From positions 1 to 32,142 of the forward strand of contig CAILDB010000006.1 of the NCBI GenBank assembly GCA_903832855.1: DNA of 32,142 nt. The letters run 5' to 3'. The notes under the pieces were generated by a model. It was not told where the DNA came from and did no database searches. It saw nothing but the letters and a program-made list of their open reading frames with translations. Within the stretch, counting starts at the first letter, position 1, and each line of letters opens with the position of its first letter. The stretch is from an uncultured bacterium. Its GTDB lineage: Bacteria; Patescibacteriota; Minisyncoccia; Phycocordibacterales; GWA1-40-21. Both the position numbers and the translations under genes were made by a program. Positions 10,249-11,485 of this stretch are shown here, one piece after another.

Positions 10249-10962
10249 ATGTCATTAAAAGAACGAACCATCTCCTTAAGAAAAACTGGTCTCAGCTATA
10301 ACGAAATAAATAAAATCCTGAATGTACCAAAATCAACACTCTCTGGTTGGTTAAAAAATATCAATCTTTCAAAAAAGGCTAAAAGTAGATTGACAAACCG
10401 AGTAAGAATGGGTTTATTCAATGGGTTAATAAAAAGAAATATAGCACAAACTGCAATAGCACAAAAAAGAGTCACAAAAATTCGAATTGAATCATCAAAA
10501 GAGATCGGTAAGTTTTCCGAGAGAGATTTATTTGTTGCTGGTATTGTCCTATATTGGGCTGAAGGGTACAAACGTGTAATAATTAGAGACGGGAGAGAAC
10601 GAACATGTCATCCAATTTCTTTAACTAATTCTGATCCGTTTGTAATTAATAGTTTTATATTTTTTCTACTCAAAATAATGAAAATTCCTAAAGATAAAAT
10701 TAGGATGGAGCTAAGATTGTTCCCAACAATGAACGCTCAAAAAATGATAGGACATTGGAGTAGAGTTACTAAGATTCCAGCTTCGCAATTTGATAAACCT
10801 ATGTTTGTGATAAGTAAATCAAGCCAAGGTATTCGCCCTTTTAACCGCTTACCACACGGTATTGCTCAGGTCAGAGTTCTAAACACAAACGAATTTTATA
10901 GACTACTGGGTTGGATTGAAGGCGTTAAAAAATCACTTGATATTTTAATTAAAAAAAGATAG
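10249..10962 (+). CDS. HTH plus LAGLIDADG-like endonuclease-domain protein
   Basis: N-terminal HTH (GLSYNEI..LNVPKSTLSGWL); AGIVLYWAEG as degenerate LAGLIDADG helix, followed by LTNSDP; very basic. Confidence 0.6.
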   Translation: MSLKERTISLRKTGLSYNEINKILNVPKSTLSGWLKNINLSKKAKSRLTNRVRMGLFNGLIKRNIAQTAIAQKRVTKIRIESSKEIGKFSERDLFVAGIVLYWAEGYKRVIIRDGRERTCHPISLTNSDPFVINSFIFFLLKIMKIPKDKIRMELRLFPTMNAQKMIGHWSRVTKIPASQFDKPMFVISKSSQGIRPFNRLPHGIAQVRVLNTNEFYRLLGWIEGVKKSLDILIKKR

Positions 10963-10991
10963 AATAATCAGGTCAGTAAAATAGAGAATAT

Positions 10992-11296
10992 GCCGAGGTA
11001 GCTCAGTTGGTAGAGCATTTGCCTGAAAATTCGGGCCTTTATTCAGAAATGAATATCGAAAATTGGGTGAATTCGGGGAAGGCCTTCAATTAAATATTGA
11101 TTGATAATCCCGAGCCGAGCTAGGAAGGGTTTAAGTTTCCTAGAAGGTGTAGAGACTAACAGGTGAGTCCCAACAATAATCCTGTAATAGCGCCCGATAC
11201 CCTTAGGGGTAATGAGATAGTCCAAATTTATCTAATGCCAGACATTTGATAAACAGGAAGAGCAAGTGGTCGGCGGTTCGAGCCCGCCCCTCGGCA
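10992..11296 (+). tRNA. tRNA-Phe(GAA), intron-containing (exons 10992-11024 and 11257-11296)
   Basis: Joined exons give a 73-nt cloverleaf with anticodon arm TTTGC-CTGAAGA-GCAAG. Confidence 0.92.
11025..11256 (+). ncRNA. Group I intron (IC3-like), 232 nt
   Basis: P1 GCCUGAA/UUCGGGC with U.G at the splice site; P AATTCGGGGAA, Q AATCCCGAGCC, R GTAGAGACTA, S GAGATAGTCC; P3 TTGGGTG/CGCCCGA; terminal G. Confidence 0.93.
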
Positions 11297-11485
11297 CAAA
11301 AATAAAATCTGTGAGAAATTTTTTCTCACAGATTTTATTTTTGTGCCGAGGAGGAGTGAACTGCTTCACTCCGTGGCAGGCTCGAACAGCGGAACTATGT
11401 TTTTCTAGCAAGAAAAACAAGTGAGCTGGTGCCTAGACTTTTCCGAGCGACGGCGAGGAAAAAGTCGAAGGAGAGACCCCGCCCC
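11289..11485 (+). repeat. tRNA-3'-attached structured repeat element
   Basis: Long hairpin including an inverted copy of the tRNA end, then shared modules (TTTTTCTAGCAAGAAAAA, GAGCTGGTGCCTAG, GAGCGACGGCGAG). Confidence 0.7.

Follow-up and report, generated by a model that had tools for sequence, protein, structure and literature searches.

Does a nearly complete bacterial genome in which standard tRNA finders report no tRNA-Phe truly lack this gene? We addressed this question at one locus of the window, the 32,142-nt contig CAILDB010000006.1 (hereafter C6) of the uncultured patescibacterial assembly GCA_903832855.1. The assembly comprises 746,192 bases in 29 contigs and is 98.81% complete, with an estimated contamination of 1.36%. 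A first-pass annotation, made from the sequence alone, had proposed that a group I intron interrupts a tRNA-Phe(GAA) gene between nucleotides 33 and 34. This proposal holds: positions 10992-11296 (forward strand) comprise a tRNA-Phe(GAA) gene interrupted by a 232-nt group I intron at 11025-11256, as judged by the match to the Rfam model RF00028, the cloverleaf formed by the joined exons, and covariation among homologs. Judging from sequence comparison, it is highly probable that this locus is the genome's single tRNA-Phe(GAA) gene, and that its precursor carries an intron free of open reading frames (ORFs) between U33 and G34.

A single tRNA-Phe(GAA) gene, split in its anticodon loop

The 5' exon (10992-11024, 33 nt) covers nucleotides 1-33 of the tRNA and ends in U33, whereas the 3' exon (11257-11296, 40 nt) covers nucleotides 34-73, starts with the anticodon GAA and does not encode CCA. 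Joined, the two exons form a 73-nt canonical tRNA-Phe(GAA) cloverleaf in ARAGORN, with a predicted anticodon loop of CUGAAGA. To place this product, we compared it with the 60 nearest genomes (same genus, family and order). In BLAST searches with the exons, the 5' exon was 97% identical to the 5' halves of intronless tRNA-Phe genes in these relatives, and the 3' exon was 98% identical to its counterpart in one of them (G023). The intronless tRNA-Phe loop reads CUGAAGA in 47 of the 60 relatives, that is, in every one read (25, plus three in which a contig end truncates the gene but the loop is complete, plus 19; the other 13 were not verified). Because all of them have this loop, the predicted product loop is most likely right, as is the junction UUUGCCU|GAAGAGC that had been expected for the spliced RNA.

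The intron begins with GAA, mimicking the anticodon, and it had been suggested that scanners may miscall the gene for this reason. Indeed, default ARAGORN finds eight tRNAs in the window, none of them at 10992-11296, and RF00005 has no match at these positions either. When introns are allowed, ARAGORN places a 232-nt intron after nucleotide 37, giving the loop CUGAAAA. According to a passage of the paper describing it, tRNAscan-SE 2.0 is not designed for group I intron detection (PMC8450103). The model RF00028 (Intron_gpI), the check suggested for this locus, matches 11015-11245 over model positions 1-253 with 56.1 bits against a gathering score of 50 (E = 1.2e-13 in a 501-nt scan of 10900-11400 with laxer filters; E = 4e-14 in the whole-genome scan).

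The earlier annotation had also stated that splicing would be essential if this were the only tRNA-Phe. No other tRNA-Phe was found in the genome assembly, whether among the 42 tRNAs reported by ARAGORN, among the 41 RF00005 tRNAs, or by BLAST with the exons. The 42 ARAGORN tRNAs include no tRNA-Phe, tRNA-Asn or tRNA-Asp, because all three genes are split by introns. Outside the 23S region of contig C14, RF00028 has three matches in the genome: the Phe locus, C12:53711-53960 (80.3 bits) and C9:23861-24084 (49.6 bits, just under the cut-off). The second lies in the sole tRNA-Asn(GUU) gene (C12:53666-53984, minus strand), which carries a 247-nt group I intron after U35, and the third in the sole tRNA-Asp(GUC) gene (C9:23852-24130, plus strand), which carries a 207-nt group I intron after U35. 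Since no other copy of any of these genes was found, splicing of tRNA-Phe, tRNA-Asn and tRNA-Asp is presumably essential in vivo. If so, a 746-kb genome would depend on self-splicing ribozymes to decode Phe, Asn and Asp. To standard tRNA finders, this 98.8%-complete genome appears to be without these three tRNAs, although all of them are present in split form. Calls of "missing" tRNAs in very small genomes thus deserve a check for group I introns.

Fold, covariation and predicted splice junction of the intron

To assess the fold, we aligned this intron with 20 homologous tRNA-Phe introns from a phylum-wide sample described below (alignment A1, n = 21). The 54 base pairs written from this copy are 92.9% paired in the alignment; shuffles reach 79.2% and slid partners 31-53%. 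Both sides vary in 27 of the 54, and the covariation score of 0.424, versus 0.161, was equalled by none of 500 shuffles. The sole ORFs overlapping the intron are 60-62 codons long and lie on the minus strand; the intron carries no homing-endonuclease ORF.

The elements reported in the first-pass annotation, namely the exon lengths and coordinates, a P1 helix with a U·G pair at U33, a P/Q/R/S core and an omega G at 11256, are all present. P1, recovered from the Rfam match, the homologs and the energy fold, pairs 11021-11026 (exon GCCU plus intron GA) with 11031-11036 (UCGGGC). Within it, the exon GCCU (11021-11024) pairs with GGGC (11033-11036), and U33 (U11024) forms a wobble pair with G11033 at the 5' splice site. 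The adjacent UUC (11030-11032) can pair either with the GAA of the intron or with that of the 3' exon, the latter forming P10. P4 (11073-11078 with 11108-11113), which comprises the P and Q elements and encloses P5, is 100% paired and nearly invariant. P7, which we take to hold the guanosine-binding site, joins 11152 and 11154-11158 to 11218-11223. Its 5' strand (11152-11158) is the R element GUAGAGACUA and its 3' strand the S element ..AUAGUCC; its six pairs agree with the RF00028 consensus and are invariant in the 21 sequences. The last intron nucleotide, omega G11256, is a G in 21 of 21 aligned homologs.

The remaining helices vary in how well the alignment documents them. All six pairs of the P2 hairpin (11040-11045 with 11050-11055), which is capped by a GAAA tetraloop of the GNRA type, changed on both sides, with 98.4% of the alignment cells paired. 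Similarly, all seven pairs of P6a (11120-11126 with 11137-11143) changed on both sides. Among the eight pairs of P3 (11062-11069 with 11191-11198), five are invariant and two compensatory. P6 (11114-11116 with 11146-11148) is seen in the homologs and the fold. P8 (11199-11202 with 11207-11210), a 4-bp hairpin with the loop UUAG, is paired in 71% of cells in a part of the MAFFT alignment that is gappy. The alignment is also gappy at P5 (11086-11090 with 11096-11100), which was read from the energy fold only. The P9 hairpin (11227-11253; 11227-11232 with 11248-11253 and 11234-11237 with 11243-11246) likewise comes from the energy fold only and is absent from most homologs in A1. An unconstrained energy fold recovers P1, P2, P3, P4, P5, P6, P6a, P7.1 and P8.

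The P7.1 in this list is an extra, P7.1-like hairpin between P7 and the 3' strand of P3 (11159-11185; stem 11159-11163 with 11181-11185). It has a conserved 17-nt loop and constitutes a 30-nt insertion relative to RF00028; four of its five stem pairs are compensatory. The CCC in its loop (11169-11171) can pair with the GGG (11127-11129) that starts L6, the loop of P6a. Two of the three pairs show a compensatory change in one sequence each, and we treat this contact as a lead. A second lead concerns the 3' tail of the intron, which in several homologs follows the exon sequence. Here, CAUUUG (11243-11248) duplicates the anticodon stem's 5' strand and could form pairs with nucleotides 40-45 of the tRNA (11263-11268). 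Across 92 introns, the longest helix between tail and 3' exon averages 4.72, whereas swapping the exons gives 3.87 and shuffling the tails 4.11. This signal stems mostly from one subfamily, relatedness confounds it, and in this copy the pairing competes with P9.

Both exon-binding helices change together with the exons. All 21 sequences have the U·G pair at the 5' splice site, and the guide follows the exon, reading GCCU:GGGC in two sequences, GCCCU:GGGGC in 13, G(G)ACU:GGUC(C) in five and GGCU:GGCC in one. P10 is GAA:UUC here, 3 bp long; among the 20 homologs its length ranges from 3 to 6 bp, with 19 of them having 4-6 bp, and it tracks the 3' exon sequence (GAAGAG versus GAAAAU/C). Despite the relatedness of these sequences, P1 and P10 helices that shift with the exons in this way are what a functional group I intron would need. 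GAA starts both the intron and the 3' exon, so that cuts anywhere from 33/34 through 36/37 give the same product. We place the junction at 33/34 because only there is the 5' site preceded by a U paired to G, with G11256 as the last nucleotide of the intron.

The predicted course of splicing follows standard group I chemistry. The intron would fold into its P3-P8 core, and P1 would form between the guide at 11030-11036 and the last nucleotides of the 5' exon, setting U33·G11033 at the splice site. Free guanosine would attack after U33. P10 would then form between the UUC of the guide and the GAA anticodon that opens the 3' exon while omega G11256 enters the guanosine site, and exon ligation would release a tRNA with the loop CUGAAGA.

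Several observations weigh against this picture. The folding energy is unremarkable (z = -1.92; 11 of 200 shuffles fold equally well) and was not used as support. The covariation counts are inflated by relatedness, and P4 and P7, which never vary, are uninformative either way. The RF00028 score exceeds the cut-off by just 6 bits, and a standard Rfam scan of the whole window at the gathering threshold missed the intron, listing seven tRNAs; this miss is a filter effect, since the scan with laxer filters found the intron. P1 has four exon pairs and P10 three, versus five and 4-6 in most homologs, and this copy could splice less well as a result. None of the listed sequencing runs that contain the stretch is recorded as RNA. 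Finally, a second tRNA-Phe gene could possibly sit in a gap of the 29-contig draft.

The short P1 and P10, the modest score, the draft state of the assembly and the lack of RNA runs would also fit a decayed, non-splicing remnant in a pseudogene, with tRNA-Phe either encoded by a second gene missing from the assembly or supplied from outside. We consider this very unlikely. The core positions that are invariant in the 21 homologs are all intact in this copy, and its sequence can form each of the family's helices. Moreover, at 98.8% completeness neither ARAGORN, RF00005 nor exon BLAST returned a second tRNA-Phe, and the Asn and Asp genes are in the same split, single-copy state. As for supply from outside, tRNA import into bacteria is, to our knowledge, not an established process.

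Removal of a functional intron at another junction is a still more remote prospect. A cut after nucleotide 37, the site reported by intron-aware ARAGORN, would leave the loop CUGAAAA with A37, the usual residue in bacterial tRNA-Phe, and the GAA repeat does make the sites from 33/34 to 36/37 equivalent in product. However, the base before the nucleotide-37 site is an A rather than a U and has no G partner in P1, whereas U33·G and omega G are kept in every aligned homolog. The 47 intronless relatives, furthermore, all have G37, and only junctions equivalent to 33/34 give CUGAAGA. As a separate observation on this residue (window position 11260), the G37 of this tRNA-Phe and of all 47 relatives read differs from the A37 (GAAAAU) of many other intron-bearing hosts of the phylum.

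An assembly or binning artefact (a split gene from another organism, or a chimeric join), conceivable given the contamination estimate and given that metagenome bins can include foreign contigs, is scarcely credible: a 701-nt stretch containing the locus lies in full on a single contig of a possible source run, a lake-metagenome contig from another study covers 10990-11172 with three differences and two gaps and shows the same exon-intron junction, and C6 does not appear mis-binned, because its eight other tRNAs add to the set on the remaining contigs, with none occurring twice, and the exons share 97-98% identity with tRNA-Phe genes in its own family of genomes. Apparent intronless joints in DNA contigs were traced to other tRNAs, with other letters between the two sides, and do not represent an intronless allele.

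Distribution and known relatives of the intron

We next consider how common such introns are. Among the 60 nearest relatives, 30 have RF00028 matches at E <= 1e-5 (31 of 61 counting this genome), and none of these matches coincides with a tRNA-Phe gene. The typed introns of the relatives sit in tRNA-Asn, tRNA-Asp, tRNA-Thr(UGU) and tRNA-Met, and in the same-genus genome G001 the tRNA-Phe gene is intronless. Two candidates for a further Phe intron were rejected: a match in relative G026 is a tRNA-Asn intron, and the supposed intron of locus L026 proved to be two tandem tRNA-Phe genes.

Wider sampling gave a different result. BLAST with the intron detected homologs in 31 of 400 genomes sampled across the phylum. 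We fetched 29 of these loci: in 20, tRNA-Phe(GAA) is interrupted at U33|G34 and the intron ends in an omega G; the host is tRNA-Asn in five and tRNA-Thr in one, and the remaining three are unresolved or cut by contig ends. In a class-level sample, 30 of 400 genomes carry the family, none of them among the same-order genomes listed, and 10 of 11 typed loci are tRNA-Phe. Overall, about 5-7% of the sampled phylum and class genomes carry it. Scanning a collection of species genomes with a degenerate motif that covers P7 plus the extra hairpin recovered at least 119 loci; in 91 of them, tRNA-Phe(GAA) is interrupted at U33|G34 by an intron of 200-439 nt (median 231) that ends in omega G. Omega G was required by the typing test for these 91 and is therefore not independent support. 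Among the other motif loci listed, 12 lie too near the locus end and 16 have other or unresolved hosts. Judging by the titles of 80 listed motif loci, most come from candidate phyla or Patescibacteria; 11 are titled "uncultured Gammaproteobacteria" or "Bdellovibrionales", and some only "bacterium". By these sequence counts, the intron family is a large one, found mostly in tRNA-Phe of Patescibacteria.

Introns after U33 were also seen in other hosts: with the same motif in tRNA-Leu(UAA) and tRNA-Ser(UGA) (loci among L133, L166, L038, L049, L059 and L095), and in tRNA-Thr(UGU) and tRNA-Met(CAU) of relatives and phylum genomes.

How this lineage acquired its copy is the weakest step of our reconstruction. 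The closest homologs of the intron are 81-82% identical to it, while the exons resemble those of the genome's own family (97-98%) and not those of the hosts of these homologs. Because the intron was found in the tRNA-Phe of none of the 60 nearest relatives and the spread of the family is patchy, lateral gain in this lineage seems more likely than retention. Against this, 13 of the 60 relatives were not verified, and vertical descent with repeated loss may also account for the pattern.

Group I introns in bacterial tRNAs are not new in kind. The four classical types, Leu.3Ug, Arg.5Ug, fMet.2Ug and Ile2.5Ug, all belong to subgroup IC3, with site 2 lying between nucleotides 33 and 34 (Williams 2020, bioRxiv 10.1101/2020.01.27.920355). 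The initial description of the classical hosts as Leu(UAA), fMet, Ile and Arg, and of 33/34 as the fMet site, agrees with this account. The same study raised the number of types to 21 and noted that metagenomic assemblies from unnamed phyla contain, per genome, 0.49 split tRNA genes. In its scheme, the present intron would be "Phe.2Ug": it lies in the 7-nt anticodon loop, and removing it yields a canonical tRNA of the isotype that the anticodon specifies. "Phe" appears nowhere in the running text of that preprint, a scope that leaves aside its Table 1 and Fig. 3, and our literature search, with Table 1 and the supplements of Williams 2020 outside its scope, found no paper naming a group I intron in a bacterial tRNA-Phe. 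For Patescibacteria and their kin, some tRNAs of circularized candidate-phyla genomes are stated to carry group I introns in a passage of Lui et al. 2021 (PMC8172020), and a 2025 preprint by Nakagawa et al. that deals with the group I introns of tRNA genes in Patescibacteria is known to us through its citation in PMC12641178. Group I introns in the tRNAs of these bacteria have thus already been reported in general terms. That Phe falls outside the four classical hosts was correctly noted in the first-pass annotation, but such a host is not rare, as the 91 of at least 119 motif loci show.

One of the closest described parallels is the cyanobacterial tRNA-fMet intron (fMet.2Ug), likewise an anticodon-loop group I intron at site 33/34 with U33 and omega G. 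It differs in its host gene (an initiator tRNA rather than tRNA-Phe(GAA)) and in its organisms (cyanobacteria rather than Patescibacteria-type genomes), and the intron studied here has the extra conserved hairpin between P7 and P3'; this likeness is drawn from the description of the fMet intron and not from sequence comparison. The classical IC3 introns in tRNA-Leu(UAA) of cyanobacteria and plastids, Azoarcus tRNA-Ile and Agrobacterium tRNA-Arg are also small, ORF-less and located in the anticodon loop, using anticodon-loop and stem nucleotides for P1 and P10, but their sites are 34/35 (Leu) and 36/37 (Ile and Arg), in contrast to 33/34. The IC3 periphery includes P2 and P9 with GNRA loops and is not known to include P7.1/P7.2. 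The present intron combines a GNRA loop on P2 with the conserved P7-P3' hairpin, and P9 is absent from most of its homologs, as read from alignment A1 and not from a subgroup-specific model. We know of no IC3 intron with a P7.1-like hairpin bearing a conserved 17-nt loop.

The closest matches are tRNA-Phe(GAA) introns in public Patescibacteria metagenome-assembled genomes (for example L132, L068 and L216), which share the host, the U33|G34 site, the omega G, the core and the P7.1-like hairpin and show 81-82% identity over 137-201 nt. Unlike most of them, this copy has a P9 hairpin; its P10 is shorter, and it occurs in an order in which none of 60 sampled relatives carries a tRNA-Phe intron. 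A more distant parallel are the tmRNA T-loop group I introns, which are bacterial, reside in a tRNA-like gene and are mostly without a homing endonuclease, and for which a passage of PMC11915505 names a "P7.1 region". They occupy another gene and another loop, and are likened here by that description and not by sequence.

In light of these features, we tentatively raise the possibility, one we hold to be less probable than its negation, that the tRNA-Phe introns form a distinct, not yet described lineage that is wide across Patescibacteria, with its own periphery, endonuclease-free spread and fixation in tiny genomes. In such a lineage, the loop of the P7-P3' hairpin may kiss L6, and in part of the family the 3' tail may copy the 5' strand of the anticodon stem. 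The guide may have been re-targeted, without a homing endonuclease, to anticodon loops containing U33 or U35, which fits the presence of introns in Asn, Ser(UGA), Leu(UAA) and Thr genes as well. In this genome, the reliance of Phe, Asn and Asp decoding on self-splicing might then make translation responsive to GTP. The single locus is a well-supported example rather than a new principle, with a host outside the four textbook cases yet common in the phylum. Its wider value lies in the triple splicing dependence and in the peripheral features and spread of the family. If the family does spread patchily over many lineages without a homing endonuclease, it would offer a natural system for studying intron movement and persistence.

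Flanking signals and further features of the genome

Upstream of the gene, a promoter-like site (TTGATA-17 nt-TAGAAT, 10937-10965, plus strand) ends 26 nt before the 5' end of the tRNA and matches 10 of 12 consensus positions. Two such sites occur in the region against 1.5 expected, which makes it a consensus match only. Downstream, a long, near-perfect hairpin with U and A runs (11283-11357) resembles a terminator, and its outer arms include the 3' acceptor strand of the tRNA. A simple terminator scan did not call it. The trailer can thus pair with the tRNA's own 3' end, and a similar hairpin lies downstream of the tRNA-Asp gene on C9. Matches to microRNA families at 11274-11363 on both strands are spurious; they are caused by this long hairpin and do not represent genes.

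Elsewhere in the genome, the 23S rRNA gene on C14 is interrupted at approximately 150700-155030: the large-subunit matches end near 151301 and resume near 155031. Four RF00028 matches (65.5, 25.6, 23.7 and 23.2 bits) and ORFs of 175-213 amino acids flank these two positions or fall between them. The same multi-kilobase insertion contains, a short way upstream of both a group I core and a 23S exon piece, a 95-nt tRNA-like element (C14:153940-154034, equivalent to L006:1451-1545) that scores 50.5 bits with RF00005, has a long variable arm and encodes ACCA; BLAST did not find it in the 60 relatives. Finally, an observation at C29:3040-3113 and C9:23575-23803 concerns isoleucine decoding: the genome has a tRNA-Ile(UAU) and just two tRNAs with a CAU anticodon, which suggests that AUA is read without a lysidine-bearing tRNA-Ile2.

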